Source of the DNA: Gammaproteobacteria bacterium
Lineage (GTDB): Bacteria > Pseudomonadota > Gammaproteobacteria > Ga0077536
DNA: 64,000 bases
Direction: 5' to 3'
Assembly (NCBI GenBank): GCA_020849475.1
Contig: JADLGE010000023.1
Location: 8,153-72,152 of the forward strand
The first letter of the stretch is position 1. The number at the start of each line of letters is the position of its first letter. The notes beneath the pieces are model-generated. The model saw only the letters and a program-made list of their open reading frames with translations, ran no database searches and was not told where the DNA came from. Positions 11,704 through 63,386 of the stretch are shown in pieces. Position numbers and translations under genes: made by a program.

Positions 11704-12456
11704 TCAGTCGTCGTCGATGTGCTTACGCAGTTCTATCGGCGCCACCGTACGGCGGCGCAGTTGCAGGTTGAGCAGTTCCACCGCCACCGAGAACGCCATG
11801 GCGAAATAGATGTAGCCCTTGGGAATGTGGAAATCGAGCCCTTCGCCGATCAGCGCCACACCGATCAGCACCAGGAAGGAGAGGGCCAGCATCTTGATGG
11901 TGGGATGGGCGTCGACGAAGTCCGATATCGGCCCGGACGCCACCATCATCACCGCCACCGCGATCATGATGGCCGCGATCATGATCTCGATGTCGCTGGC
12001 GAGACCGACAGCCGTGATCACCGAGTCCAGTGAAAACACGATATCGAGCACGCCTATCTGGATGATGGTGCTGAAGAAGCCTGCGTGGCCGCCGGCCGCG
12101 TTGCCGGTGTCTTCGACACCTTCCAGTGAGTGATGAATCTCGAGCGTGGACTTGGCGAGCAGGAACAGGCCGCCGCCGATGAGGATGAAATCACGGCCCG
12201 ACAGTTCCACACCGAAGACGGTCATGAGCGTGGCCTTGAGCTTCATGATCCAGGTCAGCGCCAGCAGCAGCAGGATGCGCGTGCCCATGGCGAGGCCGAG
12301 GCCAATCACGCGTCCGCGCTTGCGTTGCTCGGGCGGCAGGCGGCCGACCAGGATGGCGATGAAGATGATGTTGTCGATGCCGAGCACGATCTCGAGGAAC
12401 GTGAGGGTGGCCAACGCCACCCAGGCTTCCGGTGAACTCAACCATTCCATCGCCAA
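11704..12456 (-). CDS. TerC family integral membrane protein
   Basis: 250 aa. TerC hallmark EIVLGIDNIIFIAILVGRLPPEQRKRGR and a repeated membrane-core architecture. Confidence 0.85.
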   Translation of the reverse strand: MAMEWLSSPEAWVALATLTFLEIVLGIDNIIFIAILVGRLPPEQRKRGRVIGLGLAMGTRILLLLALTWIMKLKATLMTVFGVELSGRDFILIGGGLFLLAKSTLEIHHSLEGVEDTGNAAGGHAGFFSTIIQIGVLDIVFSLDSVITAVGLASDIEIMIAAIMIAVAVMMVASGPISDFVDAHPTIKMLALSFLVLIGVALIGEGLDFHIPKGYIYFAMAFSVAVELLNLQLRRRTVAPIELRKHIDDD

Positions 12457-13605
12457 TCAACCCTCGCTGTCCGGCGCCAGTCGCGCGCGAATCAAATCAC
12501 AGACTTCACGCACCGCGCCGGCGCCGGCGCCTGCCTGGCACACATAATTCACCGCGCGCCGCACCGCCGGCACGGCATCGGCCGGACAGCATGACAGCCC
12601 CACGACGCGCAGACCGGGCAGATCGTTGACGTCATCGCCGATGTACGCCATTTCCGCCAGGCTCACACCAAACTGCGGTGCGTATTCATCCAGCCACGCG
12701 CGCTTGTTCTTCACGCCCGGGAAATAATCGGTGATGCCGAGCTTGCGCATGCGCGCGCGCACCACCGCGCTGGTCTCGGCCGTCACCACGCACACCCGCA
12801 CGCCGGCATCGCGCAGCATGAGCATGCCCTTGGCATCGCGCGTGTCGAATTTCTTCAAGGCTTCGCCGCGGCCGTCGTAATACATGCCGGCATCGGTCAA
12901 GGTGCCGTCCACGTCGACCACCAAGAGGCGAATATCGTGGGCGGCCGTCACGCGCGGCTTGAGCAGCGCCTCGATGACGGGCCAGTCGGCCGGTTCGTCG
13001 AGCTCCGCCGCGCACTCCTCGTGCATCACGTGTACGCCTGTGCGACCGCCCAGGCGCACGCCGGTTTCATCGAGCAGGCGACGCCGCGTGAAATAGAACG
13101 CGCCGTTCTCCATCACCGTGCCGGCGAAGTCCTGGCGGCGGGGTCGATGGGCGGGGTCGTAGTTGAGCGCCTGGCCATCGTGACGCCAGAAGAAACGCTT
13201 GAGTTCGACGCCGGTCAGCAGCGAATCGAGCCCTTCACTTTCAAAGCGCGCACGCGCGGCGCGGAAATCCTCGACACGGGTCAAGGGTGAGGTGGCCTGG
13301 ATCAGGCACAGCACATCGCAGTCGACGTTCGCGGCGAGTTCCAGCATCACCGACTCGCTGCTGGCGGTGTCGGTGGCGTTGGCGGGATCGCGGTCCACCA
13401 CTTCGATGCGCGCGCCGTAGCGGGCGCGGGCGTCGGCGCGGATGTCCTCGGCGTCGGACATCACGTAGATGGCATCGAAGCAGCCCGAGTCGAGCGCGGC
13501 TTCGAGGCTCCAGGCGTACAGCGGTCGCCCGGCGATGGTGCGCAGATTCTTGCCGGGTATCGACTTCGAGCCACCGCGCAGCGGCAGCAGGGCGACCCAG
13601 CGCAT
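12457..13605 (-). CDS. neuA: Bifunctional acylneuraminate cytidylyltransferase-family CMP-sugar synthetase fused to a KdsC-type HAD sugar-phosphate phosphatase
   Basis: The real start is the internal Met of the 587-aa track ORF (MRWVALLPLRGGSKSIPGKNL = CMP-NeuAc synthetase N-terminus). The C-terminal half matches the KdsC/YrbI family (VVDVDGTLTDAGMYYD...IGDDVNDLPGL...AGAGAVREVCDLI). The start codon overlaps the upstream stop (TGATG). Confidence 0.8.
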   Translation of the reverse strand: MRWVALLPLRGGSKSIPGKNLRTIAGRPLYAWSLEAALDSGCFDAIYVMSDAEDIRADARARYGARIEVVDRDPANATDTASSESVMLELAANVDCDVLCLIQATSPLTRVEDFRAARARFESEGLDSLLTGVELKRFFWRHDGQALNYDPAHRPRRQDFAGTVMENGAFYFTRRRLLDETGVRLGGRTGVHVMHEECAAELDEPADWPVIEALLKPRVTAAHDIRLLVVDVDGTLTDAGMYYDGRGEALKKFDTRDAKGMLMLRDAGVRVCVVTAETSAVVRARMRKLGITDYFPGVKNKRAWLDEYAPQFGVSLAEMAYIGDDVNDLPGLRVVGLSCCPADAVPAVRRAVNYVCQAGAGAGAVREVCDLIRARLAPDSEG

Positions 13606-14492
13606 CAGCGCAGATGCACTCCGGGCAGGCGCTTCAGCTTGGCGCGCTGCGGGGCTTCGATGTCGAGAATGGCGGTCGGCTTGTGCGTGAGGGCGATGGC
13701 CACCGCGCGCACGTCGCGCACCAGCTTGCGCAGACCGTCGGGCTCGAGCGAGGCCGGATGATCGGTGCCCTTCCAGGTGCGGTCGAGAGTGAAATGGCGC
13801 TCCACCCAGTTGGCGCCCAAGGTCACCGCGGCGACGTCGACGGCAATGCCGAGATGGTGACCGGAGAAACCGATGTCGTTGACGCGATGGGCATAGAGCT
13901 CGCGCAGGCGCGCGACTTCCAGCAGGCACACCTGATCGAACGGCACCGGGTAGCCCGAGGTGCAGGCATACAGCACCACGCGGCCCTGCACGCCGAGGCG
14001 CTCGAGCAGGGTGACGATTTCTTCCTGTTCGGCGGGCGTGGTCATGCCCATCGAAATATGTATTTCGCCGGCGTAGTCGCGGGCCAGGAACTCCAGCATC
14101 TCGAAATGCAGGTTGCAGGCCGACGGCACTTTCAACATGTAGGGCTTGAGCGCGACCATTTCGCGCGCCGAGGTCATGTCCCACACCGAAGTCGAATAGC
14201 CGATGCCGAACTCTTCGCACCAGCGCATGAGCTGGCGATGCTGATCGGGATCGAACTCGAGGAATTCGCGGTGCTCGCCATAGGTCTCGCCATAGCTGTT
14301 GGCGGGATTGGGATGGGGCGCGTTGTATTCCTCGGGTGTCAGGAGCTCGCGGTTGCAGCGCTTCTGGAACTTGACGAAATCGGCCTTGGCGAAGCGCGCC
14401 GCCGATTCAATCAGGTCGCGGGCGATGGCCATGTCGCCTTTGTGGTTGCAGCCGATTTCGGCTACCACGCGTGGATGCGGTCGTTGGCTCAC
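13605..14492 (-). CDS. neuB: NeuB-family nonulosonic acid (sialic acid / KDN-9-phosphate type) synthase
   Basis: NeuB motif VVAEIGCNHKGDM and TIM-barrel segments (KADFVKFQKR, YMLKVPSACN). Start taken as GTG at 14492, preceded by a perfect AAGGAG Shine-Dalgarno 7 nt upstream. Alternative ATG at 14588 has no SD and would overlap the upstream gene by 76 nt. About 295 aa, apparently lacking a C-terminal SAF domain. Confidence 0.7.
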   Translation of the reverse strand: MSQRPHPRVVAEIGCNHKGDMAIARDLIESAARFAKADFVKFQKRCNRELLTPEEYNAPHPNPANSYGETYGEHREFLEFDPDQHRQLMRWCEEFGIGYSTSVWDMTSAREMVALKPYMLKVPSACNLHFEMLEFLARDYAGEIHISMGMTTPAEQEEIVTLLERLGVQGRVVLYACTSGYPVPFDQVCLLEVARLRELYAHRVNDIGFSGHHLGIAVDVAAVTLGANWVERHFTLDRTWKGTDHPASLEPDGLRKLVRDVRAVAIALTHKPTAILDIEAPQRAKLKRLPGVHLR

Positions 14493-14511
14493 TGCCCTGC
14501 TCCTTAAAATA

Positions 14512-15966
14512 TCAAGGCGCGACCTGGTCGGTCGCGCGACTGGCCGAAGCGGGCGCGCCGGCAAGGCGGCGGGCGGCTTCGGGGTCATGGATGCGAAACA
14601 CGTAGGGTGAACGGGCCTCGGCCCGCACACTGCCAAAGCGCCCGAGTTCGGCGCCGAAGCGCGCGATACGGGCATTCAGTTCGGGCACGGTCACGCCCGG
14701 GAATCGATGCGCATGGTAGGCGGCACTGTTGCGGTGGTTGGGCCTCATGCCGTTGATGCGCTTGACCAGAGTGCGGATGTTACCGGTCAGCCACGCGCGG
14801 AGCCAGGGTAAGGGCGCTGGCCGTCGCGGCGCCTGCTCGGCGTAGCCATTGGCCAGCAGCACGTCCATGACGCGATCACAGGCCAGCGCGCCATGGGTGG
14901 CGGCGAGGTGACGGTCGAACAGACGCTCACGGGTGGCGGCGTCGACCAGGCCGCGGCGACCGTCGAGAATTTCACCGAGCATGGCGCGCACCTCGTCCTG
15001 GCTGGCCGCGCAGTGGCTCAGACCATTCGGCAGGTGATAGTCGAAAGTCTCGGACCTGACCGGCATGTAGCTCACGGCCGGAGTGTCGAGCACGCTCGCT
15101 TCGACCGCCGTCGTGCAGCCGTTATGCAGCAGCACCTTGGCCGCCATCAGCCATGGCACCACGTTGCCGTGATGGGCGACCTCGACCGCCGGGCACGCGG
15201 CAAGGATGTCGCGCCACACGTCATGGTTTTCCGAGGGATGCGGGCGCAGCACGATGCGCTGGCCGGGAAACCAGCCGGCGAGACGTGGCAAAAGATCGCG
15301 GAAATGATCGTAAATCGCCTGTTGATGGGCGGCCATGCCGCGCGCGAACTCGAGACTCATGCCGCGCCCGGTGCGACTCACCTGCGCCTGCCCGTGGCCG
15401 TCGCGTTCGATGAGATTGAGCGCCGGCACGAAGTTGTTCACGAACGAAAAATTGGTGTTGACCAGGATGAAGTCGCCATAGCGCGCTTTCAGCGCCGCTA
15501 CTTCCTCGGCGAAATAGCCGCGCACTTCGGGGCGCAATTGATCGATGCGCGGGTTGCCGGTCACATGCACCGGCACGCCGTTGTAGCCTTCATAGCTCTT
15601 GAAGAACTCGGCGTCGTCCTCACCCCATGCGAACAGCCGGTCGATGACCTTGAAGGTCTCTTCCGAATAGCGCCACGCGTAGTACTCAGGCGAGGTGTAG
15701 CGCACCAGGCTCTCTTCATCCCAGGCCACGATGTCGTGGCCGAGACCGCGGATGAGATTGAGCATGAGTTTGCTCAAAGACCGCATGCTCTTGGCCAGGA
15801 ACAGGCCGCGCGGCAGATAGGGCATGGCGAAGTTGATGTAAGTGCGCGAGCCGATGATGACCGGCAGGCCGCGTTCGGCCGCCACGCACGCCAGCAGCAG
15901 CTTGGCGTCCATTTCACGCACCTGGTTCTCGACCGGAATGATGAGCGTGGACGGGCTGGCCGTCAT
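14512..15966 (-). CDS. Putative CMP-sugar-dependent glycosyltransferase (HP-motif, sialyl-/Kdo-transferase-like surface carbohydrate biosynthesis protein)
   Basis: 484-aa ORF immediately upstream of, and co-directional with, neuB/neuA (stop 20 nt before the neuB SD). Contains a His-Pro motif (RIVLRPHPSENHD) of the kind used by GT-B sialyl/Kdo transferases to bind the CMP phosphate. CDS call is confident; function is inferred. Confidence 0.5.
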   Translation of the reverse strand: MTASPSTLIIPVENQVREMDAKLLLACVAAERGLPVIIGSRTYINFAMPYLPRGLFLAKSMRSLSKLMLNLIRGLGHDIVAWDEESLVRYTSPEYYAWRYSEETFKVIDRLFAWGEDDAEFFKSYEGYNGVPVHVTGNPRIDQLRPEVRGYFAEEVAALKARYGDFILVNTNFSFVNNFVPALNLIERDGHGQAQVSRTGRGMSLEFARGMAAHQQAIYDHFRDLLPRLAGWFPGQRIVLRPHPSENHDVWRDILAACPAVEVAHHGNVVPWLMAAKVLLHNGCTTAVEASVLDTPAVSYMPVRSETFDYHLPNGLSHCAASQDEVRAMLGEILDGRRGLVDAATRERLFDRHLAATHGALACDRVMDVLLANGYAEQAPRRPAPLPWLRAWLTGNIRTLVKRINGMRPNHRNSAAYHAHRFPGVTVPELNARIARFGAELGRFGSVRAEARSPYVFRIHDPEAARRLAGAPASASRATDQVAP

Positions 15967-22894: not shown

Positions 22895-23263
22895 AGTCGT
22901 GAAGTCCGTCAGGCTGCGCCAAGGCGCAAGGTTCGAGTTCGTGGGCATGGGGACGAGGCTTGCGCGACACCGCGCAGGGGCGGCCTCATGACGGCTGCGC
23001 GGAGGATGGGGCGCGGCACAATCAAGCGCAGGGGCAGGCGCACATGCCAAGCGCGCGCAGCGGTCATGTCACCGCTACCGGCAGTCCAGGCACGCAAACG
23101 CCGCTGAGACATAAGCCCTCCGATCGGGCGCCGTCACTGTCTCGCGTCCACGGTGGATCTGCGCTCCGCGGCGACTGACGCTCAGGGGTTAGCGACCCGA
23201 GGCTGGCATGCCTTTAATTTCGCGCGCGACACAGCATCGCGAATGGCCACGTTACAATGGCCC

Positions 23264-24361
23264 ATGACCCGAATTCTCGCTCACTACCATATTGGCGGCG
23301 TGGCCGCCGACATCGAGGCGCGCGCCGCCGCCCTCGCCCTGGAACAAAGCATCGAGATGCCGCTGACAGCGGTCGCCAGCCGCTACGTGCGCGATGAAGT
23401 GGTGGCGCGCGTCGCGAACATCCGCGCGCTCGGCCCCGCGCTGCACGAAGTGACGCTCGCTATCGCGACGGCCACCGTCGGGCGTGACATCGGCCAACTC
23501 ATGAACATGCTGTTCGGCAACTGTTCGCTGCAGGACGATGTGGTGCTGCACGATGTTGAACTGCCCGCGACCCTGCTCAGCCACTGGCGCGGACCGCGTC
23601 ACGGCCTCGCCGGCCTGCGCACACTGGTGGGCGCCGGTCCGCGCGCCTTGACCATGACGGCGCTGAAACCCCAGGGCCTGCCGGCCACCGAACTCGCGCA
23701 GCTGGCGGCCACCTTCGCCGACGCCGGCATCGACATCATCAAGGATGACCACGGCATCGCCGACCAGGACTATGCGCCGTTCGCGGCGCGGGTGGTGGCC
23801 TGCCAGCAGGCCGTGGCACGCGCCAACGCCGCCCGCGGCGGCCACAGCGTCTACGCCCCGACCCTGTCCGGCGGCCCGCGCCAGCTCGCCGCCCAGGCGC
23901 ATATCGTGCGCGAGGAAGGCGTGCGCATGGTGCTGGCCTGTCCTTTGCTGATGGGCCTGCCGGTGTTCGATGAACTGCTACGCCACGAACTCGATTGCGC
24001 GGTGCTGGCGCACCCGGCCCTGGGCGGCGCCGCGCGCATCGCGCCGCCGCTGCTGTTCGGCAAGCTGTTCCGCATGCTCGGCGCCGATGCCACGGTGTTT
24101 CCGAATCACGGCGGACGCTTCAGCTACAGCCCCGCGACCTGCCAGGCACTGGCGCAGGCCGCGCTCGCGCCCTGGCACGATTACGCACCCTGCGCGCCGG
24201 TGCCGGCCGGCGGCATGAGTGTCGAGCGCGTCGCCGAGATGCTGGACTTCTACGGTCGCGACGTCATTCTTCTCATCGGCGGCGCGCTGCTGGCGGCCGG
24301 CGACGCGCTGCCGGCGCGCGCGCGCGAATTCGTCAGCCGCGTCCACGCCGCCACGCTTTGA
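23264..24361 (+). CDS. RuBisCO-like protein (form IV RLP, RuBisCO large-subunit family)
   Basis: Start refined to MTRILAHYH. RuBisCO large-chain active-site region conserved as DIIKDDHGIADQDY (KDDH in place of KDDE) and KPQGL in place of KPKLGL. About 365 aa, too short for a bona fide RuBisCO. No small subunit or cbb genes nearby. Confidence 0.85.
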   Translation: MTRILAHYHIGGVAADIEARAAALALEQSIEMPLTAVASRYVRDEVVARVANIRALGPALHEVTLAIATATVGRDIGQLMNMLFGNCSLQDDVVLHDVELPATLLSHWRGPRHGLAGLRTLVGAGPRALTMTALKPQGLPATELAQLAATFADAGIDIIKDDHGIADQDYAPFAARVVACQQAVARANAARGGHSVYAPTLSGGPRQLAAQAHIVREEGVRMVLACPLLMGLPVFDELLRHELDCAVLAHPALGGAARIAPPLLFGKLFRMLGADATVFPNHGGRFSYSPATCQALAQAALAPWHDYAPCAPVPAGGMSVERVAEMLDFYGRDVILLIGGALLAAGDALPARAREFVSRVHAATL

Positions 24362-24871: not shown

Positions 24872-25005
24872 CGAGGCAAATGACAACGCTGCATCGGGCT
24901 CGCAATAAAGCCCTTGTGTAGACCGGCCACCGCCCCCCGTCACCGCTATTGCCGCCCCCTGCCCCACGGGCTATGTTCGCCGCTCGCAAGATCGGGGGGA
25001 GAGTC

Positions 25006-26838
25006 ATGGTCGCGCACCGCTATTGGAAGTTTTTCGCGCTGCTGGTTGCGGTGTTGGGCGGGCTGCCCGCATTCGCCGCTGGCGACGGCAAGGATGATTT
25101 GAGCCCCATCGCCGACAGCGAATGGGACCGCGCCCACGCCGCGCATCTGCTCGAACGCGCAGGCTTCGGCGGCACGCCGGCGGAAATCGACAAGCTTGCA
25201 CACATGACGCCGCGCCAGGCGGTGCGTTACCTGGTCTATTTCGAAGGTGTGGATGCCAAGGCCATCGAGGGCCAGGCCGCGTTCGATGAATCCGGCATCT
25301 TCGAGCCGGGGCTCGATCCTTTTCCGCCCAGCCGCCCAGCCACCACCGAACTCGCCAAGGCCAAGGGCGAGGCCTTGGGCGTCAAGGTCAAGGCCAGCGG
25401 CAACCGTCCCTACCAGCCGGTGGTCGACAAATTCTTCTACTGGTTACGCGCCAGTCGTCTCGAAACCGACCGCGTCGCCTACTGGTGGGCGAACCGCATG
25501 GTGTCGTCGCCGACGCCGCTGAAAGAAAAGATGGCGGTGTTCTGGCACGGCCATTTCACCAGTAGCGAAGAGAAGGTGCGTGACTACCGCAAGATGCTGC
25601 GCCAGCTCACGCTGTTCCAGGACCAGGGCCTCGGCAACTTCCGCACCCTGCTCATCGGCGCCGCGCAGGACCCGGCCATGCTCACCTACCTCGATGCCGG
25701 CGTGAACGTGAAAGGCGCGCCCAACGAAAACTTCGCCCGCGAGATCATGGAAATGTTCACCATGGGCGTCGGCAACTACAGCGAGCACGACATCCGCGAA
25801 GCGGCGCGCGCCTTCACCGGCTGGTACTACAGCGGTCTGGAATTCAAGATCGATGCCGCCAAGCACGACGACGGCGAAAAGGAATTCCTGGGCGCCAAGG
25901 GCAACTTTGACGGCATTCAGGTTATCGACCACATCCTCGCGCAAGACGCCACCAGTCAATACATCGCCGCAAGACTCTACCGTTACCTGGTGCGCGACGA
26001 GCTTTCGCCGACACTGAAAGCCGCGCTCGCCGCACGCCTGAAGACCGGCAATTACGACATCGCCGCGTACCTCGAGACGCTGTTCCTGTCTCACGACTTC
26101 TACAGCCCCGCGTCGGTCGCGACGCGCATCAAGAGCCCGGTGGAACTCGTGATCTCGACCTATCACAAGCTCGGTCTCGTGACCGTGCCGGGCGCGCCGG
26201 ACTTCAACCTCCTGACCGAGTCACTCGGCCAGCGCCTCATGCATCCGCCGACCGTCGCCGGCTGGAGCTATGGCCGCAGCTGGGTGACGCCGAGTCTCTT
26301 GATCGAACGCGGCAACTTCGCGCTCGACGTGATGTTCCCCGACATCGAGTTCATTGCCGCCGATCGCTACCCGGTCTATCCCACCGGCGACGAAATTCGC
26401 CAGGTGCACGAGCGCATACGCGCCGGCCTCGACATGACCGCCGCCACCGCGCCGGTCGCCAAGGACGGGGGCCGCGACATGATGGCAATGTCCAACCAGG
26501 TCGAGCACGCCGAGGAATTCAACACCCGCTATGCCAGCTATCGCGGCTGGCAGATGGCGATTGAACGCGTCAAGCCGATACCGCGCGATGCACCGCGCGT
26601 GGAGTTGACGCGCATGGTGATGAGCAATGAACTCGCGACGCCGGCGGCGGTGGTCGATTACTTCATCGCGCGCTTCCTGTCGGTGCCACTCGACGTCGCT
26701 ACCCGCCAGAAACTGATCGCGAGCTTCACCACCGAACTCGGCACCAGCGACGTGCTGGCGGCGGCGAGCTACATGGAAGATCCCCTGCGCTTGCTGCTGC
26801 ATTTATTGCTGAGCCGCCCCGAGTACCAGTTAGGTTGA
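25006..26838 (+). CDS. DUF1800 family protein (secreted)
   Basis: Start refined to MVAHRYWKFFALLVAVLGGLPAFAAG (signal peptide; GGGGGAGAG SD upstream). About 610 aa, typical DUF1800 size. Paired with the downstream DUF1501 gene. Confidence 0.75.
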   Translation: MVAHRYWKFFALLVAVLGGLPAFAAGDGKDDLSPIADSEWDRAHAAHLLERAGFGGTPAEIDKLAHMTPRQAVRYLVYFEGVDAKAIEGQAAFDESGIFEPGLDPFPPSRPATTELAKAKGEALGVKVKASGNRPYQPVVDKFFYWLRASRLETDRVAYWWANRMVSSPTPLKEKMAVFWHGHFTSSEEKVRDYRKMLRQLTLFQDQGLGNFRTLLIGAAQDPAMLTYLDAGVNVKGAPNENFAREIMEMFTMGVGNYSEHDIREAARAFTGWYYSGLEFKIDAAKHDDGEKEFLGAKGNFDGIQVIDHILAQDATSQYIAARLYRYLVRDELSPTLKAALAARLKTGNYDIAAYLETLFLSHDFYSPASVATRIKSPVELVISTYHKLGLVTVPGAPDFNLLTESLGQRLMHPPTVAGWSYGRSWVTPSLLIERGNFALDVMFPDIEFIAADRYPVYPTGDEIRQVHERIRAGLDMTAATAPVAKDGGRDMMAMSNQVEHAEEFNTRYASYRGWQMAIERVKPIPRDAPRVELTRMVMSNELATPAAVVDYFIARFLSVPLDVATRQKLIASFTTELGTSDVLAAASYMEDPLRLLLHLLLSRPEYQLG

Positions 26839-61021: not shown

Positions 61022-62296
61022 GTGCAGAACATCGATGCCGACCGGCTCTACGCGCGGGTCACCTGGCGGCTGGTGCCGTTCCTGTTCCTTTGCTACATCT
61101 GCGCCTATCTCGACCGCGTCAACGTCGGCTTTGCCAAATTACAGATGCAAAGCCAGCTCGGCTTCAGCGAAACCGTCTACGGCCTCGGCGCCGGCATCTT
61201 TTTCCTGGGCTATTTTCTGTTCGAGATCCCGAGCAACCTCGGCCTGCATCGTTACGGCGCGCGCCGCACCATCGCACGCATCATGATTGCCTGGGGCCTG
61301 TTGTCGGCGGCCACCCTGTGGGTCACCACGCCCACGCAGTTCTACGTCGTGCGCTTTCTGCTCGGCGCCGCCGAGGCCGGCTTCTTCCCCGGCATCATCC
61401 TGTATCTCACCTACTGGTTCCCGGCCGCGCGCCGTGGCCAGGTGACGGCGCTGTTCGCCACCGCCGTGCCGATAGCGACCGTGATTGGCGCACCGCTGTC
61501 GGGCTATGTGTTGCAACACTTCGACGGCGTGCATGGCTGGCACGGCTGGCAGTGGCTGTTCCTGCTCGAAGCCTTGCCGTCCATCGTGTGCGGATGCGCG
61601 GCGTGGTGGTGTCTCGCCGACCAGAGTCGTGACGCGCGCTGGCTGACGGCCGAGGAACAAGCGTTCATCGCCGCCGAGGTGCAACGCGACAACGCCGCCA
61701 TTGCGCACATGAGCGTTGCCCAGGGCCTGCGCATGCCGCAGGTCTGGGCGCTGGCCGCCATCTATTTCGCGTTCGTGATGGGCCTCTATGGACTCAATTT
61801 CTGGCTGCCGAGCATCGTCAAGGATCTGGGCTATGCGCAACCGCTCGACATCGGGCTGGTGTCCGCCATCCCTTTTGGCGCCGCCTGCGTGGCGATGCTG
61901 GTCATCGCGCGCCATGGCGACAGGCATGACGAACGGCGCTGGCATATCGTGATACCGGCCACCCTGGGCGGCCTGGGCCTGCTGGCCAGCGCCCTGCTCG
62001 CCACCACCCCGCACTGGGCGGTGGCGGCCCTCACCCTCGGCGCCTGCGGCGTCCTCGCGGCAATCGTGCAGACCTGGTCATTGGCGACCGCCATCGTCGG
62101 CGGCGGCGCGGCGGCATCGGGCATTGCCCTCATCAATTCCTTCGGCAACCTGTCGGGCTTCGTCGGGCCCTATGCCATCGGCTGGTTGAAGGACGCCACC
62201 GGCAGCACCGCGGCCGGTGTCACGATGCTCGCGATTTCGATGCTGGTCGGCGCCGCGCTGGTGCTGCGTGTCACGGCGCCCGATGAGCGGGGGTAA
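61022..62296 (+). CDS. MFS transporter (anion:cation symporter-like)
   Basis: GTG start. MFS signature GxLaDRxGxRR-like (GLHRYGARRT). 12 TM helices. Confidence 0.85.
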   Translation: MQNIDADRLYARVTWRLVPFLFLCYICAYLDRVNVGFAKLQMQSQLGFSETVYGLGAGIFFLGYFLFEIPSNLGLHRYGARRTIARIMIAWGLLSAATLWVTTPTQFYVVRFLLGAAEAGFFPGIILYLTYWFPAARRGQVTALFATAVPIATVIGAPLSGYVLQHFDGVHGWHGWQWLFLLEALPSIVCGCAAWWCLADQSRDARWLTAEEQAFIAAEVQRDNAAIAHMSVAQGLRMPQVWALAAIYFAFVMGLYGLNFWLPSIVKDLGYAQPLDIGLVSAIPFGAACVAMLVIARHGDRHDERRWHIVIPATLGGLGLLASALLATTPHWAVAALTLGACGVLAAIVQTWSLATAIVGGGAAASGIALINSFGNLSGFVGPYAIGWLKDATGSTAAGVTMLAISMLVGAALVLRVTAPDERG

Positions 62297-63260
62297 GGGT
62301 CGGCGAGTGCAATTCGTCGCGCTTGGCGCGGTTCTTCAAGCGCTCGGCAAGGCGCGGCGCTGATTCCGGCCCGTGCAGGAGGGCGTCGAGATACACCGCG
62401 ACATAGCTTCTGTCGACCAGCGCGCCGCTGTCAGCAATTTGATCCTTGAGCAAATGATGCAACTGCCCGAGGTTGTACCACGGCACGCCGGGATAGACGT
62501 GGTGGCCGATATGCAGATTGATGTTGTTCCAGAAAAAGGCCTGCAGCGGGTTGGACAACACCGTGCGCGTGCCGGCCAGCGGACCGGCATTCCACTGCGT
62601 GCCGTAGTGCTCGGCAATGAAGCGCATGGAATTGAACAGCGAGAAAAAGAAGATCGGCCACAGCCATAGCGCCAGCGTCTGCGCCAATACACCGTGCCGC
62701 GCGGCGCTGGTCAGCACCCACCAGTAGACGAGCGCCTTCAGCAGGGTCTCGAAGCCATGCAATGCCCACTGCCGTGCGTTGAAGCGCTTGCACGGATAGA
62801 TGAAATTGAAATGCACGAAACTCAGCAGCGCACCGGCGACCGCGTAGGCATAGAACAACAGGAAGTCGACCGGCCCGCGCTTGCCCATGGTGAAAGCGTC
62901 CGGGTCGCGCGGTGAACGGTTGTAGCGATGGTGTTCGAGATGGTCGGCCTTGAAGGCCGTGAAGGACGCAAAGATCGGAATCATGGTGACGATGCCGAAC
63001 AGCCAGCCCAGGCGGCGACTGCGAAACAGCACGTCGTGGGTGGCGTCATGCATGAACGTTACCATGCTCATCCACAGGTAGCCGAGCGCGACATAGGCCG
63101 ACCAGCGCACCACACTGGAGGGCGTGTGCCAGGCAAGCCAGCTCAAGACCAGCATCAAGGCCACGAACGCGGGCAGCTTGACGAGATTGGGCAGCGTGCG
63201 CAGCGTGCTCAAGCGCGCGAGATCATCCGCGGCGATGCGCGGTTTCACCTGGGAGGACAT
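62271..63260 (-). CDS. Membrane fatty-acid desaturase
   Basis: Three His boxes HDATHD, HLEHH and HIGHHV. 329 aa. The 3' end overlaps the MFS gene by 26 nt (convergent). Confidence 0.85.
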   Translation of the reverse strand: MSSQVKPRIAADDLARLSTLRTLPNLVKLPAFVALMLVLSWLAWHTPSSVVRWSAYVALGYLWMSMVTFMHDATHDVLFRSRRLGWLFGIVTMIPIFASFTAFKADHLEHHRYNRSPRDPDAFTMGKRGPVDFLLFYAYAVAGALLSFVHFNFIYPCKRFNARQWALHGFETLLKALVYWWVLTSAARHGVLAQTLALWLWPIFFFSLFNSMRFIAEHYGTQWNAGPLAGTRTVLSNPLQAFFWNNINLHIGHHVYPGVPWYNLGQLHHLLKDQIADSGALVDRSYVAVYLDALLHGPESAPRLAERLKNRAKRDELHSPTLTPAHRAP

Positions 63261-63386
63261 CGGGAAACCCGTCGCAATGGTAATCGGACCGTGAGACTAG
63301 CATGCGCCCGTGTCAGAAAGACGTTATGAACACGCCGGCGGCGAACAATCGATGAATTGCCTGCCGCCGACGTGGCTCGCGCGGCC

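Follow-up and report, generated by a model that had tools for sequence, protein, structure and literature searches.

A three-gene cassette of an uncultured gammaproteobacterium with a predicted route from mannose-6-phosphate to CMP-Kdn and a candidate Kdn transferase

The formation of Kdn through a phosphorylated intermediate is known from two systems. In Bacteroides thetaiotaomicron, the pathway comprises the synthase BT1714, the phosphatase BT1713 and a CMP-KDN synthetase, according to a later paper's account of the original work (Wang et al. 2008, cited in PMC6200933). In Prymnesium parvum, the Kdn-9-phosphate (Kdn-9-P) synthetase converts mannose-6-phosphate (Man-6-P) as its sole substrate, and no conversion occurs with ManNAc-6-P, Ara-5-P, Man, ManNAc, ManN or Ara. 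The CMP-Kdn synthetase of this organism, PpNeuA, is a eukaryotic enzyme that lacks a HAD domain and carries a transmembrane anchor at its C-terminus. Its gate Arg is in steric conflict with the 5-N-acetyl group, and Neu5Ac enzymes usually have Leu at this position. Mutation of this residue, Arg196, switches the preference from Kdn to Neu5Ac, and the Arg gate is characteristic of Kdn-only organisms (PMC12934254). Vertebrate CMAS combines an N-terminal cytidylyltransferase with a C-terminal KdsC-like HAD domain, and the mouse enzyme prefers Neu5Ac. The C-terminal domain of mouse CMAS is considered a tetramerisation module without catalytic activity. Among nonulosonic acid transferases, those of Tannerella forsythia (Tanf_01245, TFUB4_00887 and BFO_1060) use Pse or Leg derivatives as donors and a protein-linked O-glycan as the acceptor, and the terminal Pse or Leg residue is lost when members of the BFO_1060 family are knocked out (PMC5420450).

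The window, i.e., the whole 64-kb stretch of DNA analysed here, contains three co-directional, tightly packed genes on the minus strand, exactly where the original prediction had placed them. These genes encode a 484-aa TIGR04396 protein (14512..15966, ATG start), a 295-aa synthase (13605..14492) and a 382-aa fusion protein (12457..13605). The GTG at 14492 is the best choice for the synthase start: an AAGGAG Shine-Dalgarno sequence (14505-14500) ends seven nucleotides before it, and the gap to the 484-aa gene is then 19 nucleotides, whereas the alternative 356-aa ORF would overlap that upstream gene. The junction sequence also bore out the predicted TGATG overlap, in which the synthase TGA and the ATG of the fusion gene have one base in common. 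Of 36 orthologous cassettes, 25 have the same 1-nucleotide overlap, and in four more the genes overlap by 4 nucleotides. This arrangement suggests translational coupling, which would keep the synthase and the bifunctional enzyme at matching levels.

Pfam scans of 30 other ORFs in the window revealed unrelated metabolism genes only. The predicted lack of NeuC, aminotransferase and dehydratase genes held across the whole 64 kb, with the caveat that the GT-B fold of the 484-aa protein is also epimerase-like. In the same scans, neither a UDP-GlcNAc 2-epimerase or ManNAc kinase nor an acceptor, flippase or export gene was found in the window.

The synthase matched PF03102 (NeuB; E 1.9e-65), which confirmed its assignment to the NeuB family, and consists of the NeuB TIM-barrel domain alone. 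It lacks an SAF/antifreeze-like domain, as does the Prymnesium enzyme. The sequence of the latter was taken from a published supplement and aligned with the synthase over 283 aa at 59.4% identity (348 bits, E 1e-124). The two proteins have in common the signature PHPNPxNSYGxTYGxHREFLEF and both metal-binding His residues. An acidic residue equivalent to E134 of Neisseria meningitidis NeuB (NmNeuB) is missing from the synthase clade, and the active Prymnesium enzyme also lacks it. NmNeuB gave only about 68 bits against the synthase, which scored far below the cut-offs of the NeuB and PseI equivalog models. In a neighbour-joining tree, all the cassette synthases and the Prymnesium enzyme formed one clade adjoining human NANS, while NmNeuB, SpsE and the NeuB-like proteins with an SAF domain branched far away. 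The phylogenetic placement asked for in the original prediction thus put the synthase outside the ManNAc-using NeuB, PseI and LegI enzymes and together with the Prymnesium Kdn-9-P synthetase. From these comparisons, we infer that the synthase is a Kdn-9-P synthase, although 59% identity does not guarantee the same substrate specificity.

Profile searches detected both predicted domains in the fusion protein, and the peptide motifs quoted in support of them were present in its translation. The N-terminal domain (aa 1-215; 12961..13605, minus strand) is a CMAS-type cytidylyltransferase that matched CTP_transf_3 at residues 4-179 (E 3.6e-21). Its best match in the PDB was PpNeuA (9t4z; 160.7 bits, 43% identity), followed by mouse CMAS (1qwj). 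R184 aligned with the Kdn gatekeeper Arg196 of PpNeuA, and 43 of 44 homologues also have Arg there. In mouse CMAS, the corresponding residue is not Arg but Leu or Gln in the HMMER and MAFFT alignments, respectively. These features suggest that the domain is a CMP-Kdn synthetase.

The C-terminal domain (aa 216-382 plus the stop codon; 12457..12960, minus strand) belongs to the KdsC-family C0 HAD phosphatases, and the KdsC/Kdn-9-P-phosphatase-type match covered residues 219-373. The scores for KdsC (139.7 bits) and for the Kdn-9-P phosphatase model NF058599 (132.5 bits) were about equal and both below the equivalog cut-offs, and the domain passed the cut-off of TIGR01670 (122.8 bits; cut-off, 107). 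The DxD nucleophile motif was present as D231 and D233, and the remaining catalytic residues (T275, K301, D324 and D328) were also intact. The domain is 37% identical to BT1713, which is a stand-alone protein of 164 aa, and has in common with it all the catalytic residues and E56, R64 and K67, which correspond to E277, R285 and K288 in the alignment. In 2009, Lu et al. reportedly identified E56 and K67 as specificity residues of BT1713. The catalytic and E/R/K positions are kept in 40 of 40 homologues, with position 275 being Thr in 30 of them and Ser in the other 10. The HAD domain is therefore predicted to be a Kdn-9-P phosphatase. The cytidylyltransferase and HAD domains are fused in 39 loci, the HAD domain is a separate gene adjoining the synthase gene in one locus (L043), and the cytidylyltransferase occurs without a HAD domain in four loci. 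This pattern of fusion and fission supports a shared pathway, and the fusion plausibly holds free Kdn near the activating site.

The 484-aa protein gave no match in a Pfam scan, but scored 375 bits against TIGR04396 (surface carbohydrate biosynthesis protein; cut-off, 125). A BFO_1060 glycosyltransferase domain was detected at residues 9-335 (E 1e-17); however, at 64 bits the match falls far short of the cut-off of 200, which places the protein outside the BFO_1060 family. The AlphaFold model (pLDDT 89.7) showed a confident TagF-like GT-B fold. Its top structural neighbour was TarL, which uses a cytidine nucleotide donor (CDP-ribitol), and the TagF, Bcs3 and Cps3D polymerases also scored highly. 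The GT-B fold of the model resembled UDP-GlcNAc 2-epimerases about as well as TagF-like transferases. The W82-D-E-E and R241-P-H-P motifs are invariant. The Tannerella transferases, which are distant homologues with a GT-B/TagB-like fold, likewise have acidic and HP motifs and are encoded next to CMP-nonulosonate biosynthesis genes (PMC5420450). In contrast to these proteins, the predicted donor here is CMP-Kdn. The TagF/TarL CDP-alditol phosphotransferases (PDB 8va1 and 3l7i) are only 13-15% identical to the 484-aa protein, transfer alditol phosphate and act as polymerases, and a very weak match to Pfam Glyphos_transf appeared in at most one member of the 484-aa alignment. No transmembrane segment was found, and the C-terminal extension is basic (18 K+R versus 7 D+E); the protein is predicted to be a soluble or peripheral GT-B enzyme. 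As judged from its fold and motifs as well as from gene context and distant homology, it is probably a CMP-Kdn-dependent Kdn transferase.

Taken together, it is likely that the cassette converts Man-6-P to Kdn, activates it with CMP and transfers it to a molecule of the cell surface, all four steps being considered jointly. The SAF-less synthase would condense Man-6-P and phosphoenolpyruvate into Kdn-9-P, as judged from its 59% identity to a strictly Man-6-P-specific enzyme. The C-terminal HAD domain of the fusion protein, with its intact catalytic motifs and the specificity positions of the Bacteroides phosphatase, would then remove the 9-phosphate. The N-terminal domain would form CMP-Kdn from Kdn and CTP, given that the Prymnesium CMP-Kdn synthetase is the enzyme that it most resembles and that the gate Arg is retained. 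Finally, the TagF-like GT-B enzyme with its HP motif may move Kdn from CMP-Kdn to an acceptor encoded outside this window; this step is proposed from the fold, the motifs, the distant homology to validated nonulosonic acid transferases and the conserved gene order. The original KDN-like reading was strongly supported by the synthase clade, R184 and the intact HAD motifs. The pathway logic is already known from B. thetaiotaomicron, with the same three chemical steps, and from Prymnesium. The bifunctional phosphatase/activating fusion and the candidate transferase, on the other hand, are not known to have been studied before. In Prymnesium, by contrast, a Kdn-9-P phosphatase has not been found, and the candidate transferase encoded alongside is a further difference of this cassette. 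We know of no TIGR04396-type gene in the Bacteroides KDN cluster.

The public annotation (N-acetylneuraminate synthase family protein and N-acylneuraminate cytidylyltransferase) would fit an animal-type route from ManNAc-6-P via Neu5Ac-9-P and Neu5Ac to CMP-Neu5Ac, as would the fusion architecture, which equals that of vertebrate CMAS (mouse 1QWJ and 3EWI; 129 and 87 bits). Human NANS uses ManNAc-6-P, and the synthase is 38% identical to NANS. However, the Man-6-P-only Prymnesium enzyme is a much nearer relative of the synthase (59% versus 38%), the gate is Arg rather than the usual Leu of Neu5Ac enzymes, and the window contains no UDP-GlcNAc 2-epimerase or ManNAc kinase; the animal-type route is most improbable. 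It is quite unlikely that the product is another ulosonic acid, made from a different sugar phosphate or by modification of Kdn. The specificity of the cassette is deduced from homology only, the HAD domain scores equally for Kdo-8-P and Kdn-9-P phosphatases, and the divergent upstream methyltransferase gene with its conserved synteny could point in that direction. Nevertheless, the Prymnesium orthologue rejects Ara-5-P and all non-phosphorylated sugars, the Arg typical of KdsC is missing from the position of BT1713 E56, and the Arg gate characterizes Kdn-only organisms (PMC12934254).

The roles of the HAD domain and the 484-aa protein could also differ from those in the Man-6-P to Kdn pathway proposed above. 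The HAD domain shares its fold with the C-terminal domain of mouse CMAS, its fifteenth-best solved match, and Oschlies et al. are said to have reported in 2009 that the mouse domain lacks activity. A structural oligomerisation module, with a separate housekeeping phosphatase acting on the 9-phosphate, would agree with the four homologous cassettes that have no HAD and with Prymnesium, which has no recognisable Kdn-9-P phosphatase. This is highly unlikely, since the HAD domain of the cassette and 40 of 40 homologues retain the nucleophile Asp, the general acid Asp, Thr/Ser, Lys and the GDDxxD Mg site, whereas in the mouse domain Asn takes the place of the nucleophile and motif IV is degenerate (GNEVSD); moreover, L043 retains the HAD domain as a separate gene. 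It is rather unlikely that the 484-aa protein is a NeuC-like sugar-nucleotide epimerase/hydrolase, or a TagF-like polymer-building polymerase/phosphotransferase, instead of a single-addition Kdn transferase. Weak per-member Pfam matches to DUF354, Glyphos_transf and Epimerase_2 and the TGNPRxD motif, which resembles motifs of both families, are in favour of these roles. In contrast, a route starting at Man-6-P gives an epimerase no role, and the protein is homologous to genetically validated Pse/Leg transferases. In addition, its paralogues adjoin other NeuB-like and CMAS genes in second cassettes that carry a separate, genuine NeuC-like gene, which argues that the TIGR04396 family is not the epimerase. 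Since an enzyme that polymerises Kdn would itself be a transferase dependent on CMP-Kdn, the polymer variant is a sub-case of the preferred explanation.

The cassette occurs widely: at least 559 species genomes contain relatives of the 484-aa gene, and the order GT, synthase, CMAS-HAD recurs across many lineages (41 of 82 loci). In many relatives, the cassette lies among ceramide and phosphosphingolipid genes, none of which is present in this window. Their flanks encode serine palmitoyltransferase, an NAD-reductase, an AMP-binding acyl ligase and a DAGK-type lipid kinase, together with a CDP-alcohol phosphotransferase, a metallophosphoesterase, nucleotidyltransferases, and ABC and LptF/G-like transport genes. 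Judged by domain content, the same set occurs in the Caulobacter crescentus cluster for ceramide and ceramide-phosphoglycerate (CPG/CPG2; CC_1152-CC_1168), for which no Kdn genes have been described (PMC11324152); none of its gene types is found in this window. The gene context in the relatives suggests an outer-membrane lipid, and not a protein or capsule, as the Kdn acceptor.

A methyltransferase gene lies divergently upstream of the cassette, and this synteny is kept in close relatives. Downstream, a gene for a TerC-family membrane protein (11704..12456, minus strand; PF03741, E 1.3e-46) begins 0-6 nucleotides past the stop codon of the fusion gene, an arrangement also seen in three other loci (L004, L005 and L039), and is probably co-transcribed with the fusion gene. 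Within the cassette, a GC-rich hairpin with a T-rich tail (14517..14537, minus strand) spans the final codons of the 484-aa gene just upstream of the synthase Shine-Dalgarno sequence. A terminator scan of the region gave 3 sites against 2.4 expected, and the hairpin is thus not significant on its own; it is possibly a partial terminator or an mRNA-stabilising element.

Three co-directional and tightly packed genes were found on the minus strand at 12457-15966, in agreement with the original prediction. Gene 1 (14512-15966) encodes a 484-aa protein, gene 2 (13605-14492) a synthase of 295 aa, and gene 3 (12457-13605) a fusion protein of 382 aa. The synthase gene starts with a GTG located 7 nucleotides past an AAGGAG Shine-Dalgarno sequence, and its TGA has one base in common with the ATG start of the fusion gene, which is the TGATG overlap noticed previously. 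The longest open reading frames (ORFs), of 356 and 587 aa, were ruled out as the genes on the basis of the GTG with its good Shine-Dalgarno sequence, the ATG overlapping the synthase stop, and the lengths of the homologues, which are 292-295 aa in hundreds of synthases and approximately 382 aa for the fusion protein. In the public annotation of the source, an uncultured 'Gammaproteobacteria bacterium' metagenome-assembled genome (MAG) whose protein accessions include MCC6707213 and MCC6707215, the products of genes 1 to 3 are named hypothetical protein, N-acetylneuraminate synthase family protein, and N-acylneuraminate cytidylyltransferase, respectively. A GC-rich 8-bp hairpin followed by the T-rich tail CTTGATATTTT is located at 14517-14537 on the minus strand, over the last codons of gene 1 and just ahead of the ribosome-binding site of the synthase gene. 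A role in transcript attenuation or stabilisation is conceivable; the terminator-scan count for this region was at chance level. No σ70 promoter was found upstream of gene 1 by a scan that is weak at 65% GC. A TerC-family membrane gene (11704-12456, minus strand), which starts 0-6 nucleotides past the stop of the fusion gene, may be co-transcribed with the cassette, with no evident link to Kdn. A horizontally acquired island was rejected, the GC content and skew being unremarkable.

The synthase contains the NeuB barrel (PF03102, E 1.9e-65) at residues 27-270, covering 238 of the 241 profile positions. The protein ends after the barrel, and no SAF domain, the carrier of the substrate-binding Arg314, was found in it. 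The cut-offs of the NeuB equivalog TIGR03569 (184 bits versus 399.65) and the PseI equivalog TIGR03586 (120 bits versus 340.25) were not reached, and similarity to the solved NeuB and PseI enzymes is low (56-74 bits, with approximately 68 for NmNeuB of Neisseria meningitidis and 56 for PseI). The Kdn-9-P synthetase of the haptophyte Prymnesium parvum, whose sequence was obtained by translating the DNA in the supplement of PMC6200933, shows 59% identity with the synthase over 283 aa (348 bits, E 1e-124) and likewise has no SAF domain. This enzyme converts Man-6-P completely and shows 0% conversion of ManNAc-6-P, Ara-5-P, Man, ManNAc, ManN, and Ara (PMC6200933). In a neighbour-joining tree, the cassette synthases of 40-odd loci formed one clade with the Prymnesium enzyme as its sister, and human NANS was placed next to them, a placement that serves only as a lead; the tree was built without the Bacteroides synthase BT1714. 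NmNeuB, SpsE, 6NCS, and the SAF-containing NeuB-like proteins of second cassettes lay far from the cassette synthases. The clade has in common the signatures PHPNPxNSYGxTYGxHREFLEF and ERHFTxDRTWKGTDHxASLEP. Both metal-binding histidines (in GFSGHH and ERHFT), the AEIG glutamate, and the KFQ lysine align with NmNeuB, and the equivalent of NmNeuB E134 is missing across the clade, the active Prymnesium enzyme included. Among the enzymes compared, the closest characterised relative is a Man-6-P-specific Kdn-9-P synthase and not a ManNAc-using NeuB, PseI, or LegI, which upholds the proposed Kdn-type logic. The comparison predicts that the window synthase is a Kdn-9-P synthase, which would form Kdn-9-P from Man-6-P and PEP. 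The stated lack of NeuC, aminotransferase, and dehydratase genes nearby also holds, 30 other ORFs scanned across the 64 kb all having unrelated functions.

The fusion predicted for gene 3 is borne out, both the cytidylyltransferase and the KdsC-type HAD domain being present in the 382-aa polypeptide. CTP_transf_3 (PF02348) was matched at residues 4-179 (E 3.6e-21). The best solved relative of this half is PpNeuA, the CMP-Kdn synthetase of P. parvum (PDB 9t4z; 160.7 bits, 43% identity), and mouse CMAS is the second. In PpNeuA, Arg196 gates the specificity, and R196L flips the preference from Kdn to Neu5Ac; the enzymes of Kdn-only organisms have Arg at this position, and Neu5Ac enzymes usually have Leu (PMC12934254). 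With the residue numbering of PpNeuA verified against the published sequence, both HMMER and MAFFT aligned R184 of the fusion protein with Arg196, the residue that gates against the 5-N-acetyl group. Arg stands at this position in 43 of 44 homologues, and the CTP-binding arginine (R10) and the strictly conserved glutamine (Q103) are kept in all 44.

Residues 219-373 match KdsC, the model of the Bacteroides Kdn-9-P phosphatase, and TIGR01670. The score for TIGR01670 was above the cut-off (122.8 bits versus 106.95), and those for the equivalog models NF058599 (132.5 versus 180) and PRK09484 (139.7 versus 208) were below. This half also matches many solved KdsC-type enzymes, BT1713 (the Kdn-9-P phosphatase of Bacteroides thetaiotaomicron), and the C-terminal domain of mouse CMAS. 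On alignment, the DxD nucleophile motif is intact (D231/D233), as are the remaining catalytic motifs, namely T275, K301, and GDDxxD with D324 and D328. E277, R285, and K288 correspond to E56, R64, and K67 of BT1713. Glu56 and Lys67, in place of the KdsC Arg, reportedly determine the specificity of BT1713 for Kdn-9-P. At the Glu56 position, four of five other solved relatives (three named KdsC and XCC2798) have Arg, and 3n1u has Ala. The catalytic and E/R/K positions are conserved in 40 of 40 homologues, with position 275 being T in 30 and S in 10. In the C-terminal domain of mouse CMAS, by contrast, Asn occupies the nucleophile position and motif IV reads GNEVSD, as checked against PDB 3ewi. 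With the motifs intact in the bacterial domain and degenerate in the mouse one, the bacterial HAD domain looks catalytically complete, unlike its vertebrate counterpart.

The predicted chemistry of the window cassette is the same as that of the Kdn pathway of B. thetaiotaomicron and Prymnesium, and its fusion has the same two-domain architecture as vertebrate CMAS, whereas Prymnesium is without the phosphatase that is fused here. The synthase and cytidylyltransferase of P. parvum are much closer to the products of 12961-14492 than the other characterised enzymes compared, and identities of 59% and 43% to haptophyte enzymes suggest gene transfer between bacteria and haptophytes. What appears to be new is an apparently active bacterial fusion, its tie to an unstudied family of candidate transferases, and the breadth of its distribution.

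Kdn is generally associated with cold-blooded vertebrates, a few pathogens, the cell walls of actinomycetes, Bacteroides, and some microalgae. In a scan of one genome per species, relatives of the 484-aa protein were found in at least 559 genomes. The carriers include Nitrosomonas, Nitrosospira, Nitrosovibrio, and Panacagrimonas, as well as many MAGs assigned to Gamma- and Betaproteobacteria, Myxococcota, Thermodesulfobacteriota, and Methylomirabilota. The full cassette is carried by cultured nitrifiers, such as Nitrosospira multiformis Nl12, Nitrosovibrio tenuis Nv1, and Nitrosomonas mobilis (L080, L063, and L081); among the papers listed by a literature search on Kdn in nitrifiers, none mentions Nitrosomonas. 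A sample of 82 loci (L numbers; 80 from the species scan plus L002 and L003) was compared. The Kdn-type synthase and cytidylyltransferase genes were adjacent in 41 of these, almost always in the order candidate glycosyltransferase, synthase, CMAS-HAD, and the 1-nucleotide stop/start overlap was present in 25 of 36 cassettes. The phosphatase was fused in 39 loci and encoded by a separate adjoining gene in L043, and in four loci the cytidylyltransferase occurred without it. In L013 (Panacagrimonas perspica DSM 26377) and L015 (a Panacagrimonas MAG), the gene for the relative of the 484-aa protein is directly followed by the CMAS-HAD fusion gene. No Kdn-9-P synthase was found between these genes or by tblastn at either locus; the synthase may be encoded elsewhere in the genome, or the pathway may be incomplete. 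The Nitrosomonas europaea/eutropha loci L062, L067, and L078 have a second paralogue of the 484-aa protein together with a SAF-containing NeuB-like synthase and another cytidylyltransferase.

The 484-aa protein matches TIGR04396 with 375.4 bits (cut-off 125) over 426 of the 427 profile positions. Pfam returned nothing for it even at E 5, and a sequence search of the PDB returned only noise. An AlphaFold model made from 28 homologues was confident (pLDDT 89.7) and has the two Rossmann domains of a GT-B fold; no transmembrane segment is present, and the C-terminal extension is basic. HP and acidic D/E-D/E-G-like motifs, as defined in literature quoted by PMC5420450, are features of bacterial sialyltransferases that also occur in the Pse/Leg transferases of Tannerella forsythia; when these transferases are knocked out, the terminal nonulosonic acid is lost (PMC5420450). 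The invariant R241-P242-H243-P244 and W82-D83-E84-E85 of the 484-aa protein resemble these motifs, although the second is without the Gly. The NCBIfam model of BFO_1060, the family of the Tannerella enzymes, was matched with E 1e-17 and 64.3 bits (cut-off 200), and on this score the protein is a distant relative of that family and not a member.

The fold alone does not distinguish a transferase from an epimerase. We prefer a candidate transferase to an epimerase because the Man-6-P route requires no epimerase, and because paralogues of the 484-aa protein adjoin a separate NeuC-like epimerase in L029, L033, L037, and L040. In these four loci, the TIGR04396 paralogue is accompanied by a SAF-containing NeuB-like synthase and a second cytidylyltransferase. 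The second paralogues are 35-39% identical, and the NeuB-like synthases paired with them are 28-37% identical to the Kdn synthase. With its paralogues paired with different synthases, the TIGR04396 family seems to include paralogues specialised for the donors of different nonulosonic acids. The 484-aa protein is accordingly put forward as a named candidate for a bacterial Kdn transferase; to our knowledge, no such transferase has been characterised. In the literature searched, the family name 'surface carbohydrate biosynthesis protein' turned up in a single paper, on genome comparison. Little is known about nonulosonic-acid transferases overall (PMC5420450).

Genes for outer-membrane lipids recur beside the cassette in its more distant relatives. 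Six such genes were considered, encoding a PLD-like protein, an MsbA-like ABC transporter, a DAGK-type lipid kinase, a CDP-alcohol phosphotransferase, LptF/G-like permeases, and serine palmitoyltransferase, and at least one of them was located within 10 kb in 18 of the 27 well-flanked Kdn-positive loci. The recurrent neighbourhood consists of these six genes, with the PLD-like (PLDc_2) gene directly upstream, plus metallophosphoesterase and nucleotidyltransferase genes; an LpxL-like acyltransferase, an NAD-reductase, HIT, and a 328-aa protein without an assigned function also occur. Leaving serine palmitoyltransferase aside, it was seen in L002, L003, L008, L009, L012, L014, L016, L027, L043, L044, L063, L077, and L080. 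In L043, L050, L060, L065, and L072, which are assigned to several phyla, among them Methylomirabilota, Thermodesulfobacteriota, and Proteobacteria, a gene for a bona fide serine palmitoyltransferase (NF047599, 626 bits versus a cut-off of 500) lies a few genes at most from the PLD, TIGR04396, or Kdn genes. L043 and L060 also encode an AMP-binding ligase and an NAD-reductase beside it, and L072 encodes the reductase without the ligase. The domain set of the neighbourhood equals that of the Caulobacter cluster for ceramide and ceramide-phosphoglycerate (CPG2), orthologues of which have been reported in Nitrosomonas eutropha (PMC11324152). This shared domain set suggests that the acceptor of Kdn is an outer-membrane lipid, and the serine palmitoyltransferase context hints at a Kdn-modified sphingolipid. 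Within the window, however, the cassette stands alone without the lipid neighbourhood of its relatives: tblastn with the lipid and LPS genes that adjoin the cassette in relatives gave no match, and no export or LPS genes were found among the 30 other ORFs.

A Kdn-sphingolipid has been reported in the haptophyte alga Emiliania huxleyi. A joint reading of all these observations, which we regard as improbable when taken as a whole, would make TIGR04396 a family of CMP-nonulosonate transferases, the Kdn members of which may cap an outer-membrane sphingolipid or phosphosphingolipid (of the ceramide-phosphoglycerate type) or the LPS core, giving a ganglioside-like anionic lipid in environmental Proteobacteria including ammonia oxidisers. 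The fusion would then be the catalytically complete form of the CMAS architecture, whose phosphatase domain is dead in vertebrates, and the 59% synthase identity would reflect gene transfer between bacteria and algae. The cassette itself predicts de novo CMP-Kdn synthesis in a large and mostly uncultured set of environmental Proteobacteria. A natural and probably active CMAS-phosphatase fusion bears on the evolution of vertebrate CMAS, and if the association with sphingolipid genes in the relatives is functional, it would indicate a bacterial outer-membrane glycolipid of a new class. The predicted two-protein route from Man-6-P to CMP-Kdn is compact and offers itself for chemoenzymatic glycan synthesis, for which Kdn-specific enzymes are in demand (PMC12934254).

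Several other features of the window and its relatives were observed. An ORF at 62274-63296 on the minus strand encodes a DesA-type fatty-acid desaturase/hydroxylase (PF00487); a member of this family opens locus L002, beside the lipid-kinase gene, and a DesA-type enzyme is cited as hydroxylating the sphingolipids of Caulobacter (PMC11324152). Since the ORF is 46 kb from the cassette, any link is speculative. The product of an ORF at 23108-24358 (plus strand) has a weak and partial match to the RuBisCO large chain (E 3e-15) and may be RuBisCO-like; an ORF for a DUF1800 protein comes next (24922-26835, plus strand), and neither is related to the cassette. Upstream of gene 1 is a divergent SAM-methyltransferase gene, and the order methyltransferase, cassette, TerC is common to the window and its closest relatives, L004, L005, and L039. 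The cassette and flanks of L004 (CAMCBY010000111.1) show 87-90% protein identity to those of the window, and this contig bears the label 'MAG: Klebsiella pneumoniae', almost certainly through mis-binning or mislabelling.
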